From a virus: a stretch of 48,341 bases of DNA. The translations under genes and the position numbers were made by a program. The notes under the pieces were generated by a model that was not told the DNA's origin, did no database searches, and worked only from the letters and a program-made list of their open reading frames with translations. Shown in pieces: positions 2,220 to 36,063 of the stretch; within the stretch, counting starts at the first letter, position 1; each line of letters begins with the position of its first letter. The DNA lies in the IMG/VR virus record IMGVR_UViG_3300045988_161023. The stretch is one strand, 5' to 3'.

Positions 2220-2645
2220 TCACTGCTCCACCCCCAACGCCCGGAGATTGGCAAGCTGTTCGTTCAAGGGCATATCCGGCCTTCCCTGCTTCCGGGCGTC
2301 CATCTTCCCCCGCAGGTTGGCGAGAATCTTCGCGCACCAGTCGGCGCCCTCTTCGCAACGCTCGTCGAACGTCAACGCGGTTTCCGGCAAGGCCTCACGG
2401 CTCACGGTTGGTATCTGCTTTCGTGCCTCTTCCACCTGCCGCATAATGTCTGCCGGGACTGGGAAAAAGCTTGATTTAGCCTCAACACGGCGCATAGCGC
2501 CCCGAAACTCATTATCACCCACGTTAGCCAATACTTCATTCCAAGTCTTGACCAACAGCTCGAACTCTTCCCGTTCCGGCATCGGTTGCCGATAAAGCAC
2601 AAACGCCTTGCTCAGTTCCAAAGCCAACAGTTGCAAGCTCGCCAT
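2220..2645 (-). CDS. Hypothetical protein, possibly replication-associated (downstream of the initiator)
   Basis: 141-aa ORF immediately after the replication initiator, overlapping its 3' end. The true start may be the internal Met at 2582. Confidence 0.45.
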   Translation of the reverse strand: MASLQLLALELSKAFVLYRQPMPEREEFELLVKTWNEVLANVGDNEFRGAMRRVEAKSSFFPVPADIMRQVEEARKQIPTVSREALPETALTFDERCEEGADWCAKILANLRGKMDARKQGRPDMPLNEQLANLRALGVEQ

Positions 2646-3582
2646 TTTTCATCACCTCATCGAATTTCAAAATTTGTTTTGCCCATTCGCCGCGTTTTGC
2701 GGTTTCCGCCTGTCTCGCCGTCATAGGGGCTTGTGTTCGCCCGCTAGGAGCGGCTTGCTTTTTGGCTTTGCGCTCCTCAACGGCATCGAAAACCCACTTG
2801 CGGAGAGCCAGATAGTGCGACTTGTACGGGTCTTTCCCTGCTCTGGCCCCGAGATGGATGTCCAAGAAGGCGATGGCATCGGCGGTCTTATCTTCCCCGT
2901 AGGCTGCTATGAGCTTTCCGTGTTCTTCTGCCGTGAGCTTGACGTTGGCATATTCCCCGAACGTGAGCTTTTGTGGCTTCGGCTTCTGTGAGCGAGTGCG
3001 TGTGTGCGTCTGCACACTCTCTTCTAGGTTCTCTGATCGGTTCTTGATCGGTTCTTGGTAGATTCGGGTACCAGTTTTGGTAGGGGTGGGGTACCTAAAC
3101 TGGTAGGGGTGGGGTACCGAAACTGGTAGGGGTGGGGTACCTAAATCGGTACCGGTACCAGTTTTGGTAGGGGTACCTAAATCGGTAGGGGTGTCTAAAA
3201 AATTATCGTTAAAATCTTGATGGTTATCTATACCCCTACCAAAACTGGTAGGGGTAGCATTTTCAGAAAAAGGCTTTTTTGAGGCTGTTTTCCTATAATC
3301 TGTGAGAATTGTTTGATTTTCTCTTCCTTCAACGCCAACCAAAGTGTACTCATAGCCGCGCCCACGCACTTCTCTACGTGAGACGATTCCGGCTTGCGCG
3401 AGGTCGATAAGACACGTTCTGATGGTCTTCACATCAAGCCCGGTATCAAATGCCAGCCGTTGAAGAGAAGGCCAGCACACATGATTCTCCCCTGCTCTGT
3501 CGGCAAGAGACAGGAGCACCAGCTTTTGAGTGGGTCGAATCCCTTGGAGGCTCCAAGCCCAACGAGTTGCATCAATGCTCAT
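2536..3582 (-). CDS. Replication initiator protein (lambda O-like) with an N-terminal HTH_36-type winged helix
   Basis: N-terminus IDATRWAWSLQGIRPTQKLVLLSLADRAGENHVCWPSLQRLAFDTGLDVKTIRTCLIDLAQAGIV is typical of phage and plasmid replication initiators. The gene contains the iteron array in its central part. Confidence 0.7.
   Translation of the reverse strand: MSIDATRWAWSLQGIRPTQKLVLLSLADRAGENHVCWPSLQRLAFDTGLDVKTIRTCLIDLAQAGIVSRREVRGRGYEYTLVGVEGRENQTILTDYRKTASKKPFSENATPTSFGRGIDNHQDFNDNFLDTPTDLGTPTKTGTGTDLGTPPLPVSVPHPYQFRYPTPTKTGTRIYQEPIKNRSENLEESVQTHTRTRSQKPKPQKLTFGEYANVKLTAEEHGKLIAAYGEDKTADAIAFLDIHLGARAGKDPYKSHYLALRKWVFDAVEERKAKKQAAPSGRTQAPMTARQAETAKRGEWAKQILKFDEVMKNGELATVGFGTEQGVCALSATDAGTGRVRAVGQDLE
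3035..3265. repeat. Origin-like iteron array plus AT-rich tract inside the initiator gene
   Basis: GATCGGTTCTTG occurs twice. There are about 5 direct copies of a ~23-bp unit GGTACC(T/G)AAA(C/T)(T/C)GGTAGGGGTGG. An AT-rich stretch taaaaaattatcgttaaaatcttgatggttatctata follows, then an inverted copy CCCCTACCAAAACTGGTAGGGG. Confidence 0.7.
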
Positions 3583-3942: not shown

Positions 3943-4120
3943 GTTTCACTTCAACCCTGTTCCGGCACTTCTGGCATCGCTTCTTGTCGAGCCACCACCA
4001 GTTAGCTTTTGGGCATGGCCTCAAGTGCGGAAATGCGCTGATAGCCTCCAGCAATGCCTCTTTCGTCTCGTACCCTGCGGCTTGCGGAGTGGGGAGGCGG
4101 TGACGGCAATGGAACGACAT
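3893..4120 (-). CDS. Small Cys-rich protein
   Basis: ATG at 4120 is one nt after the upstream stop (TGAtATG). C-terminal motif CPKANWWWLDKKRCQKCRNR. Trimmed from the track ORF 3893..4435. Confidence 0.3.
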   Translation of the reverse strand: MSFHCRHRLPTPQAAGYETKEALLEAISAFPHLRPCPKANWWWLDKKRCQKCRNRVEVKLEGREENGRTENAYAR

Positions 4121-4121
4121 A

Positions 4122-4613
4122 TCAAAACCCCAGAACCGGATCTGCGGCCCTTCCCGGCATACTCCCCCGGACGCTATGCAGTCCGTCGAAGTACAGCTTC
4201 TTCCCTTGGTAAGGATCAGGCATACAGAATTGTCCATACCAAGGTGCAGGAGTAAAATCCCCTTTGTATCGGGCCGCATCATACCGCTTCTTGTATTCTG
4301 CCCTGCATGATTGCTTTTCACATACCAATTGGTTGTGACTACGCGGGATAAATTCTTCCTCACATATGGCACAAGGCCTTGTCTCCCCAGACTCTTTTGC
4401 CTTCTCTCTGAACCGACGCACCCGCTCGGCACCATCCCGGATCTTCTTTTCTTTTAGGCAGCTTTCCGAGCAACAGATCTGGTTGTGTTCTGCCGGAATA
4501 AACATCGTGTGACAGATCACGCACTCTCGCTCTCCATAGACGCGATCAATCTCGCAGACATGATCCGCCTTTTCCCCTTTGAACCACCTTCCGCAAAGCT
4601 GGCATTTTTGCAT
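4122..4613 (-). CDS. Zinc-ribbon repeat protein
   Basis: Repeated C(V/A)IC..FIP..HNQ..C...C units plus CQLCG..F.......HVC, suggesting several Zn ribbons. No named family. Confidence 0.5.
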   Translation of the reverse strand: MQKCQLCGRWFKGEKADHVCEIDRVYGERECVICHTMFIPAEHNQICCSESCLKEKKIRDGAERVRRFREKAKESGETRPCAICEEEFIPRSHNQLVCEKQSCRAEYKKRYDAARYKGDFTPAPWYGQFCMPDPYQGKKLYFDGLHSVRGSMPGRAADPVLGF

Positions 4614-4615
4614 GT

Positions 4616-5059
4616 TTACTGCCTCGCTTGATTGTAATCTCGCCTATACCGAGTGTTCGTCTGGTCTATCTCGTCCTTCCATTCTTCCGCAGCCTTGGAG
4701 ACGATGGACGGATGCGCTTTTTCCTGCATGAGCATGACCATCTTCCCGCAGCATATGGTATCGTCCACGGATTCTCCTTCCCACGTCGGCTTGTCTGGCT
4801 CTGCCCATTCCTTGGGCTTCACGACATAGCCGAGCTTGTCCGCCAGCCATTCCAAGGGCGCGATTGAGCCACAGGAGGCCATAATGCCGAGTAGTGCGTC
4901 CGCTCCGAGCTTCGCGCCGTCGTCAGCCGGGTTCAGCTCACGCTTGAGAGTCGGATACGGCTTGCCGATCTCGGCGGCGATAGCTTTGATCGGCTTTTCG
5001 CCTTCATCGATCATGGCCTCAATGACTTCGGTCAACGTGTTATAATCTTGGGTATTCAT
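4616..5059 (-). CDS. Phage regulatory protein CII-like (CP76 / 186 CII family)
   Basis: LKRELNPADDGAKLGADALLGIMASCGSIAPLEWLADKLGYVV matches the CP76-family pattern (KL.P....KLGaD.Ll.Im...gd..pL.wLa..LGYv). It sits directly after the cro-like gene, as cII does in lambdoids. Confidence 0.6.
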   Translation of the reverse strand: MNTQDYNTLTEVIEAMIDEGEKPIKAIAAEIGKPYPTLKRELNPADDGAKLGADALLGIMASCGSIAPLEWLADKLGYVVKPKEWAEPDKPTWEGESVDDTICCGKMVMLMQEKAHPSIVSKAAEEWKDEIDQTNTRYRRDYNQARQ

Positions 5060-5641: not shown

Positions 5642-6376
5642 ATGGATATTTACGCTGAATTTTTGGCCTTACTGGATAAGGCCATCGAAAAATGTGGAAA
5701 CGCCAAAAAACTAGCTGAGGCTCTTGACGTTCACCCGAATCTTATCACTCGCTGGAAAAAAGGTGAGCGTGTACCTACTATTACATCAATACAACCTCTT
5801 TTAGATTTTCTTGGTGTAGGGTTTTCCGATCCAACCGTTACCCAAAGTAAAGAGGTCTGCTTTGTTGACGCGCGTATAGCCCCGGCTGGGGACACGCTCC
5901 CCCCTCCCCCGGATGAAGACTACCTCGCCGTTCCCCTTGTGGAAGAAGTTGGCGCGGGGCCCGGCATCATTCCGCAAAATGAACTCATCTCGTGGTTCCT
6001 CGTCTGGCGTCACCAGCGGGCCATTCAACACAAGCGCGATCTGATCGCCGTCATGCTCGGAAAGCATTCAACTTCGATGGTTCCCACGCTCAAGCCGCAG
6101 GATATTGTGCTGGTGGATAGGCAGGATAAGGATGTGATGAACTTTAAGGGAAGAATCATGCTTGTCCTCGATCCCGCCGACGGCAGCGGAAAGATCAAGC
6201 GCGTGGCAGCGGAAAACCAGCCGAAAAAGCGCGACTATCGCATCACCTACTATTCGGACAACGCCGCCGAGAATCCCCCCGAGGTCTACAGCTTAATGGA
6301 AGACTTCGAGGGGGACTGGAACAAGTCCATCGTCGGTCGGGTTGTATGGGCGTGGAGTGACGTGAGCTGCAAATGA
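5642..6376 (+). CDS. CI-like repressor (XRE HTH plus S24 LexA-like autopeptidase domain)
   Basis: N-terminal HTH LAEALDVHPNLITRWKKGERVPT. C-terminal S24 motifs HSTSMVPTLKPQDIVLVD (Ser nucleophile) and GSGKIKRV (Lys). Confidence 0.85.
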   Translation: MDIYAEFLALLDKAIEKCGNAKKLAEALDVHPNLITRWKKGERVPTITSIQPLLDFLGVGFSDPTVTQSKEVCFVDARIAPAGDTLPPPPDEDYLAVPLVEEVGAGPGIIPQNELISWFLVWRHQRAIQHKRDLIAVMLGKHSTSMVPTLKPQDIVLVDRQDKDVMNFKGRIMLVLDPADGSGKIKRVAAENQPKKRDYRITYYSDNAAENPPEVYSLMEDFEGDWNKSIVGRVVWAWSDVSCK

Positions 6377-6410: not shown

Positions 6411-7292
6411 ATGGGTCCAGTTGATAAAGTTGCATATGAAGCTTTGAATAATTATTGTATTAAACTAGAAGAACATCTCCAGTCTGATGTTTTTTTGTTT
6501 TATGGTGGTATTCACCCTAACCACAGAACATTCTTTACCACTGAATTTGAAAAATTAGCTAGAAAGAAAAAACATAAATCTCTTGCTGTCAATTTAACAA
6601 CAAATGGCGGCAGTGTAGAAATGGCTGAGATAATGGTTGAGGTGATGCGTAGGTTCTATGATGAAGTATATTTCATTGTACATGAATATGCATACTCAGC
6701 GGGTACTATTCTTTGCATGTCTGGCGACAAAATATATATGAATTTTGCCTCATCATTAGGCCCTATAGATCCTCAAGTATTGTCTAATGGACAATGGGTT
6801 CCTGCACAAGGGTATTTAGATCAATTTGATGCAATATGTAAAAAATCATTAAATAAAGATTCTAATAACCCCATAAGTCCAGTAGAGTTACAAATGGCTT
6901 TAAATTTAAATCTTGCTGATTTAAATTTTTATCAACAAGCACGAAATATAACCGTAACGCTATTAAAAAAATGGCTCGTAAATTATAAATTTAAAGACTG
7001 GACAATTCATAGTAAAACAAATACCGAAGTCACACTTAAAGAAAAAGAGCATAGAGCTGAAGAAATAGCTAGAATATTAGGTGATAATGCTCACTGGCAT
7101 ATACATGGAAGACATATAGGAATAAAAACTCTTCAAGACGATCTAAAGCTAAAGATTGAAGATTATTCAGACGACCTTAAATTATATAGATTAGTAAAAG
7201 AATATAATAGACTTGCGATTGACTTTTCATCAAAATATAACTATCAATTATTTTTACATACTAGAGAAATGACTAATGGGAGTTTACTCTAA
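6411..7292 (+). CDS. S49/SDH-family Clp-fold serine protease (moron in the rexA position)
   Basis: TNGGSVEMAEIM...VHEYAYSAGTILCMSGDKIYM...GPIDPQV matches the SppA/ClpP-fold GG(S/T)V...SAG...DKI pattern. GC is strikingly low, about 30-35% by eye against roughly 60% in the flanks. Confidence 0.7.
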   Translation: MGPVDKVAYEALNNYCIKLEEHLQSDVFLFYGGIHPNHRTFFTTEFEKLARKKKHKSLAVNLTTNGGSVEMAEIMVEVMRRFYDEVYFIVHEYAYSAGTILCMSGDKIYMNFASSLGPIDPQVLSNGQWVPAQGYLDQFDAICKKSLNKDSNNPISPVELQMALNLNLADLNFYQQARNITVTLLKKWLVNYKFKDWTIHSKTNTEVTLKEKEHRAEEIARILGDNAHWHIHGRHIGIKTLQDDLKLKIEDYSDDLKLYRLVKEYNRLAIDFSSKYNYQLFLHTREMTNGSLL

Positions 7293-11488: not shown

Positions 11489-12196
11489 TTGAAAAAAACG
11501 ATTGTTGGTGATGCGATTATTTACTGTGCCGATTGTCGGTCTATTCTTCCCACGCTGGATACTGTAGATGCAGTAGTTACAGATCCTCCATATGGAATCG
11601 CATATCAAAGTGGATATGCGACAAAAAAGCTTTGGGCTGCAGGGAAGAAGATCGCAGGAGACGAGACAACGGCGGTTAGGGATGAGGCTTTACAGCTTTG
11701 TCATAATCTTTGCTCTCCCATGCTGGTTTTTGGTTCTCATAAAGCCATACCACCAGAGGGGACCAGACATATTTTGATCTGGGACAAGGGTCCAGCTCTC
11801 GGAATGGGAGCGCTGGACCTTCCGTGGAAACCTTCTATTGAAGAGATCTATGTCCTTGGGAAGGGCTTCGTAGGAAAACGTGATGAAGGTTCCGTTATCT
11901 ACTGTCCCCCGGTGCAGAGTATGGCGAAAAATGGTCGGAAGCATCCGAATGAAAAACCAGTTCCGTTGCTACGGCGGCTCATAAAGAAGTGCCCCGAAGG
12001 GACTATCCTTGATCCCTTCATGGGAAGCGGTGCCATAGGTGAAGCCGCTCTTTTAGAAGGCAGGCGTTTCGTAGGCATCGAAATTGAGCAGAAATTCTTT
12101 GAAATTGCTAAAAAACGCCTTGAATATGCTGAACACTCGATAAGCTTGCTGCATGGGCGCGGCTGCATGAACAACGCGCGGGGTGAAATATGCTGA
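11489..12196 (+). CDS. DNA N6-adenine / N4-cytosine methyltransferase (beta-class, orphan)
   Basis: VVTDPPYGI (motif IV) precedes DPFMGSGAIGEAA (motif I). TTG start as in the track, with GGAGT upstream. Confidence 0.85.
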   Translation: MKKTIVGDAIIYCADCRSILPTLDTVDAVVTDPPYGIAYQSGYATKKLWAAGKKIAGDETTAVRDEALQLCHNLCSPMLVFGSHKAIPPEGTRHILIWDKGPALGMGALDLPWKPSIEEIYVLGKGFVGKRDEGSVIYCPPVQSMAKNGRKHPNEKPVPLLRRLIKKCPEGTILDPFMGSGAIGEAALLEGRRFVGIEIEQKFFEIAKKRLEYAEHSISLLHGRGCMNNARGEIC

Positions 12197-15581: not shown

Positions 15582-15773
15582 ATGAGTGAGGCAGAAAAAC
15601 TGCAAAAAATTGCCCAGATTATGTTGGAAAAAGAGAAGAAAGAAAAAGAAGTTGCAGCACTTAACCGCATGATTGCCGAACTTCTAGGAATATCCTCTAC
15701 AGAAACAATGAAATTACCGAACAAGGTCTATTCATCAAATCAGTTTAAAGCTGCATGTAGGGGGGCAAAGTGA
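15582..15773 (+). CDS. Small protein upstream of and overlapping int; possible excisionase/DNA-binding protein
   Basis: 63-aa ORF with GGGGGAGAT RBS and a GTGA overlap with the int start. The Xis assignment rests on position only. Confidence 0.35.
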   Translation: MSEAEKLQKIAQIMLEKEKKEKEVAALNRMIAELLGISSTETMKLPNKVYSSNQFKAACRGAK

Positions 15774-16768
15774 GTTGGTCACAGAGATCTGACGGTCGAT
15801 TCATTGTAAAATACAAAGACAAAGGAATATGGAAACAGATTTCTTTCACAGACAAAGAGAAGGCTATACTCTTTGACGCAATGCATAACGCCCCAAAAGA
15901 AGAGATTCGTCTCACTATGGGAGAATTGATCGTCAAGTATCTACATGGAAATCCGGATCTTTTTCATGAAACCCGCGAGCGCATTATCTGGTTGTATGCC
16001 GATGGTGGTCCATGCGCCTTCATGCGCGACAAATATGCAGATTCTCTAAATCGCCAAGACCTCGAACAACTTCGGGAAAACATACGGGAACGCAAAGCCA
16101 GCAACAACACGTCAAACCACTATCAAGCATATACAAGGGCAATATTGGCGTGGGGAGTCGATCAAGGTCTACTTGTGCTTAACCCTTGGCGAGATTTCAA
16201 AAAACTTAAAATATCAAAACCAATTCATACCGCAACGTTACTAGATCTGAAACGCTTATATCCTTTTCTTCCCCCTTATCTGCAATGGGCCGCAAAGACG
16301 GCCTTTTTTTTGGCACTTCGCCCGGGGATGGTTGAGCTTTTCAGCTTGAAATGGGATGCCTTCGATTTTAGGCGGGGAATCGTTTCAATCCGTCAAGGTA
16401 AAACAGGAAAGATCAAGAGTGTCTATCCGAACCCTGTGTACATGCAAGAAGCCGCCGCACGCTGTGCCGAAGATTTCAAGCGAGGGGTAGCGCTGGTTTG
16501 CCACAACAATGGGAAACCCGTTCTGTCCTACCATAAAATGTGGGGAAAGGCGTGCCGACAAGCAGGGGTCAATTTAAGGTTCTACGATGTGCGACACCTT
16601 GCCGCTACAGAAATGCTTGCCCGTGGCGCAGACCTTGCCGCAGTCGCCGCCCAACTCGGCCACGCATCGGTAACGACAACCGGAAGCACATATGCGCACG
16701 TCACCCCGGGGGGGCAGTCACATGCCGGATCACTCATGCCTGCAATCGACATCGAACCGAACTCATAA
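15770..16768 (+). CDS. int: Tyrosine recombinase / phage integrase
   Basis: C-terminal catalytic region RFYDVRHLAATEM...LGHASVTTTGSTYAHV carries the R..H..R..Y signature. GTG start after GGGGGG. Confidence 0.9.
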   Translation: MSWSQRSDGRFIVKYKDKGIWKQISFTDKEKAILFDAMHNAPKEEIRLTMGELIVKYLHGNPDLFHETRERIIWLYADGGPCAFMRDKYADSLNRQDLEQLRENIRERKASNNTSNHYQAYTRAILAWGVDQGLLVLNPWRDFKKLKISKPIHTATLLDLKRLYPFLPPYLQWAAKTAFFLALRPGMVELFSLKWDAFDFRRGIVSIRQGKTGKIKSVYPNPVYMQEAAARCAEDFKRGVALVCHNNGKPVLSYHKMWGKACRQAGVNLRFYDVRHLAATEMLARGADLAAVAAQLGHASVTTTGSTYAHVTPGGQSHAGSLMPAIDIEPNS

Positions 16769-31668: not shown

Positions 31669-32472
31669 CTATGCGGCACGGCGAAGGCGGTACTTGCCCA
31701 GCATGTTCAGGTCGTTTTTCAGGGACAGCCGGAAGGCTTCGATCACGTCGACGTGGTACGCCTTCACGCTCCCGAAACGGCTGTCCTCGATTTCCCGGAT
31801 TTCGTAATCCATACGGCGGGACATATCGGAAAGCTTGCGTCCCGCGACGGAGTACGCGGCTGGCGTATCTGCGAAGATGTCAAGGAACCACGGGATGCCC
31901 TTCACGGACTTGTAGTCCCTGCCCCGCCCAAGTTCGTTCTCAAGAGCCGCAGCCTTGCGTACGGCTGCGGAGGCGGTTGCCATTGCGGTGGCCTCGCGGC
32001 GTGAACCGATTTCGGCCTTGGTGCGGATTGCATCGTCGCGCTCGGCTTCGATGCGCCTGATGGTTTCCTGCGCGACCAGCACGGCGCGGGCAAGGATGAC
32101 TTCGGGGGTATCGTCCAGCTTGGCTATCAGGTAGCCGCCCGTCTTACGGATGGAGGGGATGACCTCATGCGTCACCCACCGCTTGAACGCCTTGGCTTCG
32201 GGCTTGCGGGAACGCAGGATGAGGGAATACAGGCCCGGTTCTGAAATGATACGGCTATCGCGTCGCAATCCTGTGGAATCATTCAGAGTGTGGATAATAT
32301 CGACAATAGGGCGTTGCTCGTCGTGCTCCAGAATGTCCGGCAGATCCCGCGTCTCCGTCCCGAGGACGGCGCATACATCCCGCGCCACAAACCACGGCTC
32401 ACCCTTGTGCTCGATCACGCGAAGGGAACCGAACTTTTCATGCTCAAAAAGAGCCAAGGGAGAATTTTCCAT
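31669..32472 (-). CDS. Antirepressor with N-terminal Bro-N domain
   Basis: Start at MENSPLALFEHEKFGSLRVIEHKGEPWFVARDVCAVLG, which is Bro-N. ATG 32472 is preceded by GGAGGTG. The 50 upstream codons of the track ORF are leader sequence containing the promoter motif. Confidence 0.7.
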   Translation of the reverse strand: MENSPLALFEHEKFGSLRVIEHKGEPWFVARDVCAVLGTETRDLPDILEHDEQRPIVDIIHTLNDSTGLRRDSRIISEPGLYSLILRSRKPEAKAFKRWVTHEVIPSIRKTGGYLIAKLDDTPEVILARAVLVAQETIRRIEAERDDAIRTKAEIGSRREATAMATASAAVRKAAALENELGRGRDYKSVKGIPWFLDIFADTPAAYSVAGRKLSDMSRRMDYEIREIEDSRFGSVKAYHVDVIEAFRLSLKNDLNMLGKYRLRRAA

Positions 32473-32525
32473 CGCTGCACCTCCATAGTGTTTTGGAGAT
32501 GATGCCGCATGGCGGCGTGGGGGCA

Positions 32526-32543
32526 CACCGTGAACAAGGTTCG
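32526..32543 (-). promoter_or_regulatory. Late-promoter dyad motif copy 3 (CACCGTGAACAAGGTTCG)
   Basis: Sits 54 nt upstream of the antirepressor ATG. Confidence 0.5.
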
Positions 32544-32646
32544 TGCAGGCAAAAGAAAAGCCCCTTTCGGGGCGGAGGGCGGCGGCGGTGGATTTTTGGA
32601 ACGGCCTATGCCATGATAGCCTCATCTATAATAAGGGGGATGATGT

Positions 32647-33246
32647 ATGGCTACCTACATCAAATTTCTGGCAGGGGACTACGGGAAAGAAGAATATATT
32701 TACATTAAAAATAAAAACCAGTTGCGTTGCTCTTCAAAAATGTTTGGAGCAAAGGAACTTTTTCTTTCCAGTATTGCCTCTTGCGAAGTAGCCAATGAAG
32801 AATCGGTCAAAAAGCTCGGCGGAACTTTGGGAGGCGCACTTGTCGGCGGCGTCTTGCTTGGAGGCATCGGAGCGGTTGCGGGTGCGGTAGCTGGAGGCAA
32901 GACGACTGAGTCTACCGTCATTATTGAGTTCAAAAATGGAAATAAGGCATTGGCAAAGGTGAATAGCCCCATGATGGAGGTTATCCGCGCACACCTTTTT
33001 GATGACCAATTGGCCCAAGAGCGTGGAGAACCAAACCCGCTTATACATCATGAACGTTCTCAGACGCCCCCTAAAAAAATTGCCCTTATCATTGGAGTGC
33101 TGATAACAGTAGTGCTAGCCGTATTGTGGCTGAGTTGTGCCCTCCAAACGCCGCCCAATACGAATGGGGCCTTGTTATGGGGAATCCTCACTATCCTTTC
33201 CGGACTGTATTCTTGGAAAACCTATAAGAAAATATATAAATCTTAA
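32647..33246 (+). CDS. Glycine-zipper membrane protein (moron)
   Basis: LGGTLGGALVGGVLLGGIGAVAGAVAGG glycine zipper, then two C-terminal TM helices (IALIIGVLITVVLAVLWL and LLWGILTILSGLY). GC about 44%. Transcribed opposite to the flanking late genes. Confidence 0.6.
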   Translation: MATYIKFLAGDYGKEEYIYIKNKNQLRCSSKMFGAKELFLSSIASCEVANEESVKKLGGTLGGALVGGVLLGGIGAVAGAVAGGKTTESTVIIEFKNGNKALAKVNSPMMEVIRAHLFDDQLAQERGEPNPLIHHERSQTPPKKIALIIGVLITVVLAVLWLSCALQTPPNTNGALLWGILTILSGLYSWKTYKKIYKS

Positions 33247-33281
33247 TATATTAACTTGAATCCGAACAGGGAGAGAGGACC

Positions 33282-34352
33282 ATGGATTTTTCGGAAAGAA
33301 TTGCTGAATTGTCGAAAAAGGTAAAGAATCTGGGAGATAGCCTCAAGACCGAAGAGGCCACGAAAAACGCCTTGGTGATGCCTTTCATCGCGGCCCTGGG
33401 ATACGACGTTTTCAACCCTGCGGAAGTCGTGCCCGAATTTTCAGCCCCCATCGGCGAATATAAGGACGCCCGCGTGGACTATGCGATTCTTGTGGACGGC
33501 AAGCCTATCCTTCTTCTGGAGTGCAAGGCTTTGGGCACGTCTCTCGACATGAAGCACTGCAACCAGCTACAGCTTTACTTCCACGGGACGGAAGCCCCCA
33601 TTGCCATCCTGACGGACGGCAACCGTTACCGGTTCTATTCCGATCTTGAAACAGCCAACAAAATGGACAGCAAGCCCTATATGGAGTTCGTCCTTGACGA
33701 TATGGATGAAATGTTGCTCCCGGAACTGCGCAAGTTGGCAAAAGGCAAGTTTGATCGGGATGCCTGCATGAGCGCGGCAAACGAACTCAAGTACAACCGA
33801 GAGTTCAAACGCCTCATGTCCGAACAAATGGAAACGCCCCACGAAGATTTCGCACGCTTTTTCATCGGACAGACGTATGATGGGCGTATCACGCAAAACG
33901 TTCTGGATCGCTTCACTCCAATCCTTACCGCTGCGCTTGACCAGTTCATCAACGACCGCATCAACGACCGATTGAAAAATGCCATGACGCAGCAGAAACC
34001 GGAAATTGTAGAGATAGAGTCCGAAGATACCCCACAAGGAAAAGAGCAGGATTCGCGTATAGTCACCACCGAGGAAGAAAAAGAGGCGTATTACCTTGTC
34101 AAATCGCTTCTGATGGGCACCGTTGATCCGGGGCGCGTAGCCATGCGGGACAGCATCAGCTACTGCTCCATCCTTCTTGACGACAACAGGCTCAAGCCTC
34201 TGTGCCGCCTGTATTTCAACGGAAAACAGTGGAGGGTCGGACTGTTTGATGGGGAGAATAAGGACGCAAAGGAAGACATCGAAAAACTGGAAGATATTAT
34301 CCCCTTTGCGGATCGAATCCGGGCTACGGCCTTGAAATACGATAACAAGTAA
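33282..34352 (+). CDS. HsdR-N (type I restriction enzyme R-subunit N-terminal, PD-(D/E)xK) domain protein
   Basis: TEEATKNALVMPFIAALGYDVFNPAEVVPEF...ARVDYAILVDGKPILLLECKALGTSL matches the HSDR_N nuclease-fold core (D...E.K). It has no helicase or other fused domain. Confidence 0.65.
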   Translation: MDFSERIAELSKKVKNLGDSLKTEEATKNALVMPFIAALGYDVFNPAEVVPEFSAPIGEYKDARVDYAILVDGKPILLLECKALGTSLDMKHCNQLQLYFHGTEAPIAILTDGNRYRFYSDLETANKMDSKPYMEFVLDDMDEMLLPELRKLAKGKFDRDACMSAANELKYNREFKRLMSEQMETPHEDFARFFIGQTYDGRITQNVLDRFTPILTAALDQFINDRINDRLKNAMTQQKPEIVEIESEDTPQGKEQDSRIVTTEEEKEAYYLVKSLLMGTVDPGRVAMRDSISYCSILLDDNRLKPLCRLYFNGKQWRVGLFDGENKDAKEDIEKLEDIIPFADRIRATALKYDNK

Positions 34353-34363
34353 AACTTTCCAAC

Positions 34364-34500
34364 GTGGCGTTGTCCGCCAATGCAGATGAATAACATCCAG
34401 ATGCGGGCAACGCCACTGCTTTTCTCTTTACATTTTTCGCGTTTTGTGCTGTCTTTTTTCTACGGTGCTCATCACACCAACAGTAGGCGGACAACGCCAC
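34364..34500. repeat. Perfect 15-bp inverted repeat pair (GTGGCGTTGTCCGCC ... GGCGGACAACGCCAC) flanking a T-rich 107-bp spacer
   Basis: A third partial copy GCGGGCAACGCCAC lies at 34402. A further 12-bp inverted repeat, GATGCCGGGTGT / ACACCCGGCATC, lies at 34575 and 34657. Confidence 0.4.
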
Positions 34501-34709
34501 CCGATAGTATGGCTCTTTTTGTGCCCTTTTGCCGAAGTCAAGACTCTTTTTGACTTTGGTTTTCTGCTATACTTGCATCTTCCTGATGCCGGGTGTCCCT
34601 GATATGTCCAAGCGTAAGCTAAAGGCAGGGAGCCGCTCCTACTGGCGGTGATGAACACCCGGCATCGTCATTCATCGGCGATGCCAACTCTTAACAGTAG
34701 GAGTTGGTT

Positions 34710-35639
34710 ATGTCTCATTCTCTTTGCTTCAACGATTTCACTTTCTCCCCCATAACTCGCGGCAATCAGCCTTGGATTCGCGCTACAGAACTCGCACGAG
34801 CTCTTGGGTATGGACGCGAAAATCAAGTTTCGCGTCTTTACCGAAATAACGCCGATGAATTCACGCCAGACATGACGCAACTAGTTGAAATTACCGCACA
34901 GCCCCAAAACGGGGCTGAGGGTCGCGCCCGCATCTTCTCACTTCGCGGCTGCCACCTCCTCGCCATGTTCGCCCGGACTCCGGTAGCAAAGGCATTCCGC
35001 AAGTGGGTGCTGGACGTCATCGAGCAGTACGGCGACAGGGTGCCCGTTGCCGAACCTGTGACGCTCAACGACGAGCTGATCAGTGCGGCGGAACGTGCCG
35101 AGCTCAAGCTCATCGTAGACGCCAAGCTCTCGACCTACCCCGCCGCTGTGCAGGGCAAGGCCCGTGCCGAAATCTGGGCGAAGCACAACCGCCATTTCCG
35201 CATCGCGGAATACAGCCAGCTCCCGGCCCGGCTCATGCCCGAGGCCCGCGAGTTCCTGCTTTCCGTCCGAGTCCGCGCCATCAACGCCATACCCACGGCG
35301 GAATCCGCGATCCCGTACCCTGCGCTTCCCGTCGCATCGTCACTATACCGCGACCGCGTGAGGGAGCTTGAACGGCTCGAACAGGATTGGATGGAACTTG
35401 CAGTCCTGATCCGCGACCGCGCTTATGGACTGGAACGAGATTTCCGCCGGGTGATGCAAGGAACGTATCCCGAGCTGCTCCGGCATGTATCGCCATCCGG
35501 GAAGACGCCCGTTGACGCGCTTATCCAGCTCATGACAGCCCCGACCTACACCGCCCGGCAAAACCTCGAATCCGCGCTTGATGATATGCGTCTTGCCATC
35601 CGTGCCGCGAAGACGGCAAACAGGTTGATGCTAGGGTAA
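34710..35639 (+). CDS. Second antirepressor-like protein (Bro-N-like N-terminus)
   Basis: ATG 34710 follows AGGAG. FNDFTFSPITRGNQPWIRATELARALGY fits the Bro-N pattern. Confidence 0.55.
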   Translation: MSHSLCFNDFTFSPITRGNQPWIRATELARALGYGRENQVSRLYRNNADEFTPDMTQLVEITAQPQNGAEGRARIFSLRGCHLLAMFARTPVAKAFRKWVLDVIEQYGDRVPVAEPVTLNDELISAAERAELKLIVDAKLSTYPAAVQGKARAEIWAKHNRHFRIAEYSQLPARLMPEAREFLLSVRVRAINAIPTAESAIPYPALPVASSLYRDRVRELERLEQDWMELAVLIRDRAYGLERDFRRVMQGTYPELLRHVSPSGKTPVDALIQLMTAPTYTARQNLESALDDMRLAIRAAKTANRLMLG

Positions 35640-35694
35640 TCCTTGGCAAGCCTACATGAATCATATAAGACTTTACCAACGGAGGGATTCCCCC

Positions 35695-36006
35695 ATGCTG
35701 CTGTTCGATGATGGGAAAAAGCTTGAAAAGGCCGTCGGCGAGGAAGCCGCAAAAGCCATCGTGGAAGTACTGGAACGCTTTGACGAGAGCCAAAGGAACG
35801 CCAGTGCCACCAAGGGAGATCTGCGCGAAACGGAACTGCGGTTGCAAAAAGAAATTCGGGAATTGGACCTGAAAGTGCAAGCGGAGATCGAAAAAATTCG
35901 TGCTGAAGTGTTGAAGGTCAAGTATGATCTTTTGAAATGGCAAATCGCCATAGGGTTTGCCCTTGTCGCAGTTATGGCCAAGGGCTTCGGCTGGCTCGGA
36001 TTCTAA
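35695..36006 (+). CDS. Coiled-coil protein with a C-terminal transmembrane anchor
   Basis: ATG follows GGAGGG. Heptad-rich RETELRLQKEIRELDLKVQAEIEKIRAEVLKVKYDLL, then WQIAIGFALVAVMAKGFGWLGF. Confidence 0.5.
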   Translation: MLLFDDGKKLEKAVGEEAAKAIVEVLERFDESQRNASATKGDLRETELRLQKEIRELDLKVQAEIEKIRAEVLKVKYDLLKWQIAIGFALVAVMAKGFGWLGF

Positions 36007-36027
36007 TAAAGAAAGAATATCGTAGAA

Positions 36028-36063
36028 AAGGGGTGGCTTTAAGAGCCGCCCCTTTTTGTTTTT
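36028..36063 (+). terminator. Rho-independent terminator
   Basis: AGGGGTGGCtttaagaGCCGCCCCT followed by TTTTGTTTTT. Confidence 0.6.

Follow-up and report, generated by a model that had tools for sequence, protein, structure and literature searches.

Probably separable cargo genes for a solitary HsdR-N nuclease and a glycine-zipper membrane protein in Bilophila wadsworthia prophages

Introduction

The type I restriction subunit HsdR (that of EcoR124I, or the Vibrio vulnificus fragment 3h1t) and the type IIG/IIL enzymes BpuSI and DrdV share an N-terminal nuclease domain of a kind that also occurs in the subject of this work, a pair of adjacent genes in a phage genome. The stretch analysed, here called the window, comprises 48,341 nt (IMG/VR record IMGVR_UViG_3300045988_161023) and is a nearly complete E217-like prophage of Bilophila wadsworthia. 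Two of its open reading frames (ORFs) are considered: ORF1 (32647–33246, + strand), for a predicted 199-aa inner-membrane-anchored PH-like protein with a glycine-zipper insert, and ORF2 (33282–34352, + strand), for a predicted 356-aa solitary HsdR-N nuclease of the RecB-type PD-(D/E)xK class. Unlike HsdR, BpuSI and DrdV, ORF2 has no superfamily 2 (SF2) helicase motor, methyltransferase or specificity domain, its nuclease domain being followed by helical and small α+β domains without a family match, and HsdM/HsdS are absent nearby, both here and among the commonest neighbours of its homologues. A survey of PD-(D/E)xK enzymes groups COG2810 and COG4748 with HSDR_N (PMC3424549). The solitary HsdR-N proteins of phrog_4225 are ORF2's own family, and ORF2 does not differ from them.

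Lambda rexAB, P22 sieA/sieB and S. thermophilus Ltp are exclusion genes carried in the lysogeny modules of temperate phages. Like them, members of the ORF2 family and one relative of ORF1 are repressor-strand genes beside a CI-type repressor, whereas ORF1 and ORF2 have no sequence or fold relationship to them, and the window copies lie outside the lysogeny module. Hypervariable defence hotspots have been described in a preprint on P2-like prophages and P4-like satellites (bioRxiv 10.1101/2021.01.21.427644). As far as that text describes them, these hotspots resemble the site studied here in occupying a fixed position in near-identical prophages with alternative cassettes of one to three genes; the present site differs in belonging to E217-like Bilophila myoviruses, in its other cargo, and in having anti-CRISPR cargo in the same island.

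An initial annotation of the window had proposed ORF1 and ORF2 as a two-gene defence pair, in which a nuclease or sensor adjoins a potential membrane-disrupting effector. We favour, with a probability of roughly 0.55, a reading in which they are adjacent, functionally separable cargo genes ('morons') in a hypervariable slot, ORF2 being a self-sufficient nuclease and ORF1 a separate membrane factor, both possibly protective. The domain calls, the lack of a type I partner and the absence of a name for the pairing are the parts of the earlier proposal that stand, and the position in the phage is of a kind often used for exclusion or defence genes; a single two-gene system is the part that is not supported. 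ORF2 would be an endonuclease to which helicase, methylase and ORF1 are all dispensable; expressed from the prophage, it would cut incoming foreign DNA in the manner of a solitary type IV or type II-like restriction enzyme, with its C-terminal domain, carried on a flexible linker, selecting the substrate. ORF1 would be fixed to the inner membrane by a swappable transmembrane (TM) anchor, with its PH-like domain in the cytoplasm and its glycine-zipper loop dipping into the membrane, and would act alone at the membrane as a superinfection-exclusion or abortive-infection-type factor.

Results and discussion

ORF2 is a predicted stand-alone nuclease

ORF2 scores above the Pfam gathering thresholds for HSDR_N (50.4 bits, cut-off 25.1; E 3.2e-13) and HSDR_N_2 (33.2 bits, cut-off 25; E 6.1e-8). 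No other Pfam domain was found in it, and its middle (residues 134–238) and C-terminal parts, scanned alone, gave nothing at E ≤ 10, in agreement with the initial annotation, which had recognised the HsdR-N nuclease as the only domain. The AlphaFold2 (AF2) model is confident, with a predicted local distance difference test score (pLDDT) of 88.9, and it has a restriction-endonuclease-like fold, structurally closest to the nuclease domains of DrdV, HsdR and BpuSI; a sequence search of the PDB returned nothing meaningful (best E 0.53, V-ATPase subunit F). The nuclease domain spans residues 1–140 (33282–33701, + strand) and contains the catalytic residue D66 (33477–33479, +), the E80-C81-K82 motif (33519–33527, +) and the Q95xxxY99 motif (33564–33578, +); residues 65–82, VDYAILVDGKPILLLECK, are the motif quoted in the initial annotation. 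D66, E80, K82, Q95 and Y99 are invariant in 59 homologues of 47–82% identity. This D / ExK / QxxxY set is the RecB-family nuclease set described for EcoR124I HsdR.

Beyond the nuclease domain, the model shows a helical middle domain without a family match (residues 143–238; 33708–33995, +; helices 143–150, 159–184, 188–198 and 205–238), a disordered linker (residues 239–257), and a C-terminal α+β domain (residues 258–356; 34053–34349, +) made of a helix, five strands and a helix. As modelled, the last is most likely a candidate substrate-recognition domain. ORF2, only 356 aa long, has no Pfam helicase match, and the model has the helical bundle and small α+β domain in its place. Because the catalytic set is invariant, the model confident, the structural matches are to restriction nucleases and the architecture is conserved, ORF2 looks, on these predictions, like an active, autonomous nuclease.

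The family is large, with more than 6,400 homologues and at least 570 viral contigs. ORF2 matches phrog_4225 ('endonuclease') over its full length (E 1.8e-114, residues 1–354 against profile positions 2–355 of 357), and the whole 356-aa architecture is conserved at 43–51% identity across bacterial phyla and archaea. Most homologues are unnamed; the few with names are called 'type I restriction endonuclease', 'HsdR N-terminal domain-containing protein' or 'predicted type IV restriction endonuclease'. The last is the name given by JGI to homologue P0111, and is presumably the COG2810 label. The 'type IV' label is an annotation guess for this family. ORF2 shares with such enzymes the lack of a cognate methyltransferase, the family being solitary in most contexts. 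NCBIfam offers no family name for either ORF2 or ORF1. With PADLOC v2.0.0, ORF1 gave no match, and ORF2 matched only MTase_I and type IIG models, weakly (E about 2e-3) and at their nuclease ends.

The initial annotation had noted the lack of a helicase or methylase partner, and this extends beyond the window. No hsdM, hsdS or helicase gene lies beside ORF2 in the island, and the window's only methyltransferase gene, an orphan DNA methyltransferase (11489–12196, +; phrog_67, E 7.5e-53), is 21 kb away in the early/lysogeny region. In neither set of neighbours of ORF2 homologues, 145 chromosomal and 150 viral, do N6_Mtase or Methylase_S rank among the 25 commonest families, and type I helicase genes are likewise missing from the commonest neighbour families. 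Homologues that were always fused or adjacent to complete type I restriction-modification systems would have undermined a stand-alone role. Since no type I genes are among the commonest neighbours, the ORF2 family does not appear to be a fragment of type I systems.

Homologues of ORF2 lie beside phage repressors

Of eight annotated temperate phages checked, seven carry the ORF2 homologue within the lysogeny module and on the same strand as the repressor: Enterococcus EG-TP1, Fusobacterium FNU_1P, Corynebacterium Juicebox, Streptococcus IPP25, Lacticaseibacillus P7.1, Acetoanaerobium ANDSL2_ph1 and Clostridium CWou-2020a. The genes of P7.1 are all unannotated, and this phage was judged by matching position only. 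Where an integrase is annotated (EG-TP1, FNU_1P, Juicebox and IPP25), the homologue lies between the repressor and the integrase. An ImmA-like metalloprotease gene often precedes it. In ANDSL2_ph1 it comes after the repressor and a metalloprotease, and in CWou-2020a it follows helix-turn-helix regulators. In Porphyromonas phage019b the homologue adjoins HicAB. Among 150 neighbours of ORF2 homologues on viral contigs, the commonest families are HTH_3 (13), Peptidase_S24 (12) and HTH_19 (8). This position within the lysogeny module, on the repressor's side, suggests expression in the lysogen.

The solitary HsdR-N family, placed beside a CI-type repressor in phages of Firmicutes, Actinobacteria, Fusobacteria and Proteobacteria, is a strong candidate for a single-gene, prophage-borne restriction function, and is missing from PADLOC v2.0.0. 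Literature searches (glycine zipper/PH domain/phage; HsdR N-terminal domain/prophage; PF13588; HSDR_N; Bilophila anti-CRISPR) returned no characterisation of the phrog_4225 or PF27000 families.

ORF1 carries a PH-like domain, a glycine zipper and an exchangeable membrane tail

ORF1 (phrog_20920) belongs to PF27000, PH_gly_zipper; the local Pfam copy did not contain this model, and the assignment comes from the precomputed Pfam annotation of the near-identical homologues P0121 (99%) and P0122 (98%), and of P0129. Its AF2 model (pLDDT 67) has six strands and a closing helix, with the zipper, at low confidence, inserted between strands, followed by two TM helices. The PH-like domain covers residues 1–125 (32647–33021, +; strands 4–9, 16–20, 25–28, 43–48, 88–95 and 100–106, then helix 107–125), and the model thus has a PH-like fold with an inserted glycine zipper. 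The zipper, residues 57–85 (32815–32901, +), has the sequence LGGTLGGALVGGVLLGGIGAVAGAVAGG and low pLDDT. It had been pointed out in the initial annotation and is borne out by nine glycines (G58, G59, G62, G67, G72, G75, G79, G83 and G84) that are invariant in relatives down to 38% identity. The segment is hydrophobic, with a 19-residue hydropathy of up to 1.95, and probably dips into the membrane.

The C-terminal membrane anchor (33073–33237, +) comprises TM1 (residues 143–167) and a weaker TM2 (174–197). Of the two helices claimed originally, the first is clear (mean Kyte-Doolittle hydropathy 2.87 over residues 145–163), whereas the second (about 174–197) is moderately hydrophobic (about 0.8), though modelled by AF2 as a helix. 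Lysines flank the anchor, with PPKK ahead of TM1 and KTYKKIYKS past TM2, and by the positive-inside rule both ends of the anchor and the PH-like domain are therefore predicted to be cytoplasmic.

The tail is swapped in sister phages, where 187-aa and 330-aa forms have N-terminal 135–141 residues that are 89–95% identical; in the 330-aa variant a single TM segment is followed by a domain of about 190 aa. The two-TM tail of ORF1 is also found on the DUF4236 proteins P0137 and P0138, and the set of proteins that exchange tails further includes P0128 and P0129. The C-terminal module is thus swappable, an instance of domain shuffling on a common anchor. The variable, outward-facing nature of the tail suggests that it contacts something external.

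Conservation in the PH_gly_zipper family lies in the PH-like domain, for which there are 629 cluster representatives at E ≤ 1e-3; most of the distant ones are 116–126 aa long and consist of the domain alone. ORF1 differs from most PF27000 members in its two-TM anchor, which they lack. Among the fusion partners of ten long PH_gly_zipper proteins, nine have no Pfam domain and one is tRNA_anti-like (P0242). As modelled, a cytoplasmic PH-like domain on a swappable anchor would suit a membrane-level exclusion factor at least as well as the membrane-disrupting effector first suggested.

The two genes assort independently

Had the two genes formed one system, they should co-occur across divergent genomes; mostly they do not. 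A PH_gly_zipper gene is absent at 77 of 80 genomic ORF2 loci, the exceptions being L018, L019 and L021 (51% identical, retrieved with close relatives). The 77 include L020 and L022 (67–76%, Desulfovibrio/Bilophila) and relatives of 43–50% identity, in lineages including Pseudomonas, Methanosarcina, Chloroflexota and Planctomycetota. None of 75 viral ORF2 loci has a PH_gly_zipper gene, and no HSDR_N gene was found within 4 kb of 45 distant PH_gly_zipper loci. The pair is confined to a few phage contexts in the Desulfovibrionaceae, namely the Bilophila-type phages, contig L014 and probably L019.

Each gene is also found alone in the closest relatives, sometimes at the same site. Homologues of ORF2 in L193 (80%) and L196 (77%) come first in the same head–tail island of sister prophages, with no PH_gly_zipper gene. 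Instead, a gene for an exported tRNA_anti-like OB-fold protein lies 3 nt past the ORF2 homologue in both, and L202 and L022 (76%) are alike. The homologue in L194 (75%) is chromosomal and solitary, flanked by PPK2 and an SNF transporter, and that in L020 (67%) has no PH_gly_zipper partner. Conversely, a near-identical Bilophila phage (L103/L157) retains the whole of ORF1 but has lost about 950 bp of ORF2, between CTGGGAGATA and CTGGAAGATA; this could be a real variant or an assembly artefact, L103 and L157 being one and the same IMG/VR contig. Relatives of ORF1 (53–56%) stand alone in L127 and L128 at the Pam3_gp18/Dit site where L014 has the pair, and in L015 a relative lies directly after an S24 repressor with a secreted SNase next to it and no ORF2. 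The nuclease thus occurs with PH_gly_zipper, with tRNA_anti-like, or alone, and PH_gly_zipper and tRNA_anti-like each occur with or without the nuclease. Because the three assort freely, independent single-gene modules fit better than an obligate pair.

Two further details concern these loci. The deletion in L103 (5600–6074, identical in L157; window 33335–34290) joins ...AATCTGGGA to TGGAAGATATT... at a short imperfect repeat. The exported tRNA_anti-like genes (L193 4598–5125, L196 4598–5299, L022 6095–6616, L202 about 4065–4793) are separated from the ORF2 homologue by a 2–3 nt gap or overlap it slightly; their products have a signal-peptide-like N-terminus, and the tRNA_anti-like match (PF12869) reaches significance in L196 (E 4e-8) but stays below threshold in L193 and L022 (E 0.02).

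Evidence for a facultative module

Several observations, in this section and the next, weigh against two separable, protective genes. In this phage lineage the pair is always together, across all three C-terminal variants of ORF1. A different phage, L014, carries the pair between baseplate genes (Pam3_gp18 and Dit-like), with ORF1 58% and ORF2 40% identical to those of the window. Its ORF2 ranks above 100 among the window protein's relatives and is closer to Pseudomonas and Methanosarcina homologues (44–47% identical) than to the window's, which favours independent juxtaposition of the two pairs over shared ancestry. That the genes were brought together twice, with different ORF2 lineages, hints that adjacency may be of some benefit. 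The cut contig L019 probably carries the pair as well, since the final part of a PH_gly_zipper-like ORF comes before its 82%-identical ORF2 homologue. In all Desulfovibrionaceae phage contexts seen, a gene for a membrane or exported protein, PH_gly_zipper or tRNA_anti-like, lies within about 50 nt of ORF2, and the same two domains are fused in the otherwise unrelated 404-aa protein P0242.

These observations would be accounted for by a facultative two-gene module in Desulfovibrionaceae phages, in which the nuclease works with an envelope protein (PH_gly_zipper here, the tRNA_anti-like OB protein in sister phages). The membrane protein might hold or activate the nuclease at the site of DNA entry, or the nuclease might sense foreign DNA and the glycine-zipper protein collapse the membrane. 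Such a module would explain why the pair is kept with a 32–45 nt gap while the tail of ORF1 is swapped, why it is exchanged as a block against other hotspot cassettes, and why ORF2 is so tightly linked to the tRNA_anti-like gene in L193, L196, L202 and L022; the juxtaposition with a divergent ORF2 in L014, the probable third in L019, and the P0242 fusion point the same way. Set against it, each gene stands by itself in the closest relatives and at shared sites (L127/L128 versus L014, the ORF2 deletion in L103, the solitary L194), and the wider ORF2 family lacks the partner and retains the full-length architecture. Viral homologues show no enrichment for neighbours with TM segments either (7/40 upstream, 9/29 downstream), and tRNA_anti-like genes fill the slot without ORF2 too (L277 and L280). 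On balance we consider a facultative module unlikely, though deserving some weight.

Its boldest form would make the ORF2 family an unrecognised, very widespread single-gene prophage defence nuclease, placed next to the CI repressor in hundreds of temperate phages of different phyla, that in Desulfovibrionaceae phages has been coupled to envelope proteins, so that a DNA-entry signal at the membrane places or activates the nuclease. This is a long shot; if true, the coupling of a membrane sensor to a stand-alone HsdR-N nuclease would be a new architecture for defence. Under the favoured reading of two separable genes the pairing does not hold up and opens no new class of system. Both proteins are in existing families (phrog_4225/HSDR_N and PF27000), and identical sequences are already deposited: ORF1 is identical to WP_370791676.1 / DAE09105.1, and ORF2 to WP_029435268.1 ('type I restriction endonuclease [Bilophila wadsworthia]') and, at 100%, to a gene of B. 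wadsworthia ATCC 49260 (L018). NCBI holds both proteins under B. wadsworthia and the gut virome contig Myoviridae sp. ctEg02. As the initial annotation had suspected, the pairing is not a named system, in that we found no PADLOC model or paper describing it.

Protection or DNA processing

The remaining adverse points concern a protective role. Neither protein matches a PADLOC system, and protection by either is thus presumptive. Enrichment beside known defence genes, which the initial annotation had suggested looking for, did not appear: a PADLOC scan of 145 neighbours of chromosomal ORF2 homologues gave scattered single matches. Pseudomonas homologues keep a conserved housekeeping neighbourhood, with Peptidase_C26 in seven loci, and such constancy suggests stable vertical inheritance, unusual for a defence gene. 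Nor can we name a mechanism by which the predicted nuclease would spare host and prophage DNA.

ORF2 might, on this evidence, be a non-defence DNA-processing enzyme, serving repair, recombination or the control of prophage and host DNA transactions, that phages have borrowed, with ORF1 as unrelated cargo. Besides the lack of PADLOC enrichment, stable chromosomal neighbourhoods (Peptidase_C26/GATase in the seven Pseudomonas loci, RecA in two, PPK2/fumarase in L194) agree with this, as does a conservation that is unusually high for a defence gene, at 43–51% identity among Bilophila, Pseudomonas and Methanosarcina. But positions on the CI-repressor side and in cargo hotspots, in unrelated temperate phages of at least five phyla, typify lysogenic conversion genes; the patchy spread across bacteria and archaea indicates frequent horizontal transfer, and the nearest structural relatives of ORF2 are all restriction-enzyme nuclease domains. 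We regard such a DNA-processing role as improbable, and continue to prefer a separable nuclease with a possible protective role.

Among the Pseudomonas loci, L062–L064, L068, L069, L071, L074, L075, L079 and L082 share neighbours: one group has a 260-aa protein downstream, another a 180-aa protein. The seven Peptidase_C26/GATase neighbours are taken to be the 260-aa proteins. In five loci a second HSDR_N paralogue adjoins the ORF2 homologue.

A hypervariable slot in an island with an AcrIF11-family gene

ORF1 and ORF2 are the first two genes of a cargo island (32.6–38.1 kb, + strand) that lies between the tail and head modules on the strand opposite to both, outside the window's lysogeny module; their coordinates, sizes and place in the island agree with the initial annotation. 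The GC content is 48–58% in the island and 50–54% over the ORF1–ORF2 stretch, against 60–62% in the flanking structural genes, a difference that marks the two genes as foreign to the phage.

The first slot of the island, corresponding to window positions 32460–34700, is hypervariable among otherwise near-identical Bilophila prophages. Among contigs whose Cas8f/Cas5f-like protein is identical, the right part of the island is common to all and this slot differs; it holds PH_gly_zipper plus HSDR_N in the window, L278 and L281; a 235-aa gene plus a zinc-ribbon/tRNA_anti-like gene in L277; DUF7424, zinc-ribbon and DUF4236 genes in L279; and two tRNA_anti-like genes in L280. In L193 and L196 the slot holds HSDR_N plus a tRNA_anti-like gene. 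We know of no alternative cassette of this slot that is a characterised defence system. The DUF4236 protein in the L279 slot is 151 aa long. In the prophages of this common gut pathobiont the slot forms a clear-cut cargo hotspot, whose cassettes are suited to side-by-side screening.

To the left, the slot is bounded by a Bro-N antirepressor-like gene (31669–32625, −; Pfam Bro-N, E 1e-21; phrog_130), whose true start is probably near 32460, judging from the 262–263 aa gene calls in sister phages (L005–L013). The conserved right part begins with a second Bro-N antirepressor-like gene (34704–35639, +), followed by genes for a 103-aa coiled-coil protein, an AcrIF11-family protein and the Cas8f/Cas5f-like protein.

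The AcrIF11-family ADP-ribosyltransferase gene (36112–36690, +; NCBIfam NF052490, E 1.8e-28) overlaps by 17 nt the gene for the 463-aa Cas8f/Cas5f-like protein, both lying within 36112–38065 (+). Residues 10–193 of the latter resemble the N-terminal half of Cas8f and residues 207–457 resemble Cas5f (PADLOC, E 1e-20 to 1e-21), and the protein also matches the tail of Cas8/5f fusion models. No Cas7f, Cas6f, Cas3 or CRISPR array was found near this gene. An ORF on the + strand at 38335–39480 (381 aa), at first suspected to be Cas7-like, is almost certainly spurious, overlapping the major capsid gene on the − strand (38353–39366; 337 aa; PF09950 in sister loci). The AcrIF11 and Cas8f/Cas5f-like pair is present in all five contig contexts shown, always just before the capsid gene. 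One may speculate that a phage-borne Cas8f(N)–Cas5f protein lacking the C-terminal half of Cas8f is a dominant-negative anti-CRISPR. We found no paper on such a protein, and the overlapping genes may merit more attention than ORF1 and ORF2.

The presence of these two genes in the same island, together with the Porphyromonas phage019b homologue, which lies four genes from an annotated acr candidate, allows ORF1 and ORF2 to be seen as part of the island's anti-defence load, with ORF2, for example, poisoning the type I restriction complexes of the host, serving them as a decoy, or degrading a host defence nucleic acid. We find this very improbable: a decoy would have no need of the complete catalytic motif set, which is invariant, many chromosomal copies exist outside phages, the repressor-strand position of homologues in lysogeny modules fits expression in the lysogen and not early infection, and the ORF1/ORF2 slot varies independently of the Acr part.

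Transcription signals and prophage setting

ORF1 and ORF2 are spaced by 35 nt and preceded by purine-rich ribosome-binding sites, AAGGGGGA upstream of ORF1 and GGGAGAGAGG upstream of ORF2. Apart from weak terminator-like matches within the ORFs themselves (33178–33190 in ORF1, 33471–33485 in ORF2), nothing separates the two genes, and they are probably co-transcribed. A terminator-like hairpin (34531–34560, +; 13 pairs, then a T-rich tail) lies 180 nt past ORF2 and is likely the end of their transcript. A sigma-70 consensus scan found no credible promoter before ORF1, promoter-like sites being as numerous as in shuffled controls, and an Rfam scan of 32000–39000 gave nothing near any gathering score. 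The 350-nt non-coding stretch past ORF2 contains a perfect 15-bp inverted repeat (34364–34378 / 34486–34500; GTGGCGTTGTCCGCC / GGCGGACAACGCCAC; arms 107 nt apart), which was dropped as a candidate element because its right arm is not conserved in the sister phage L103; it has no Rfam match. No remnant of a tRNA_anti-like partner was found in this gap, and the 2.3-kb region, compared as DNA with phage records, matched none.

Elsewhere in the window, the replication initiator gene is at 2536–3582 (−), and the lysogeny module (5.6–16.8 kb) includes a CI-like repressor (5642–6376) and an integrase (15770–16768); a RecE-like exonuclease is also encoded. The tail fibre, baseplate and tail genes extend up to 31.6 kb (−) and the head genes begin at 38.35 kb (−), the Pfam families of these structural genes being taken from sister loci. 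Directly after the CI-like repressor gene lies a 293-aa gene (6411–7292, +; phrog_11747), within the lowest-GC stretch of the window (41–42%, 6–8 kb), which is likely another cargo gene of the lysogeny module.

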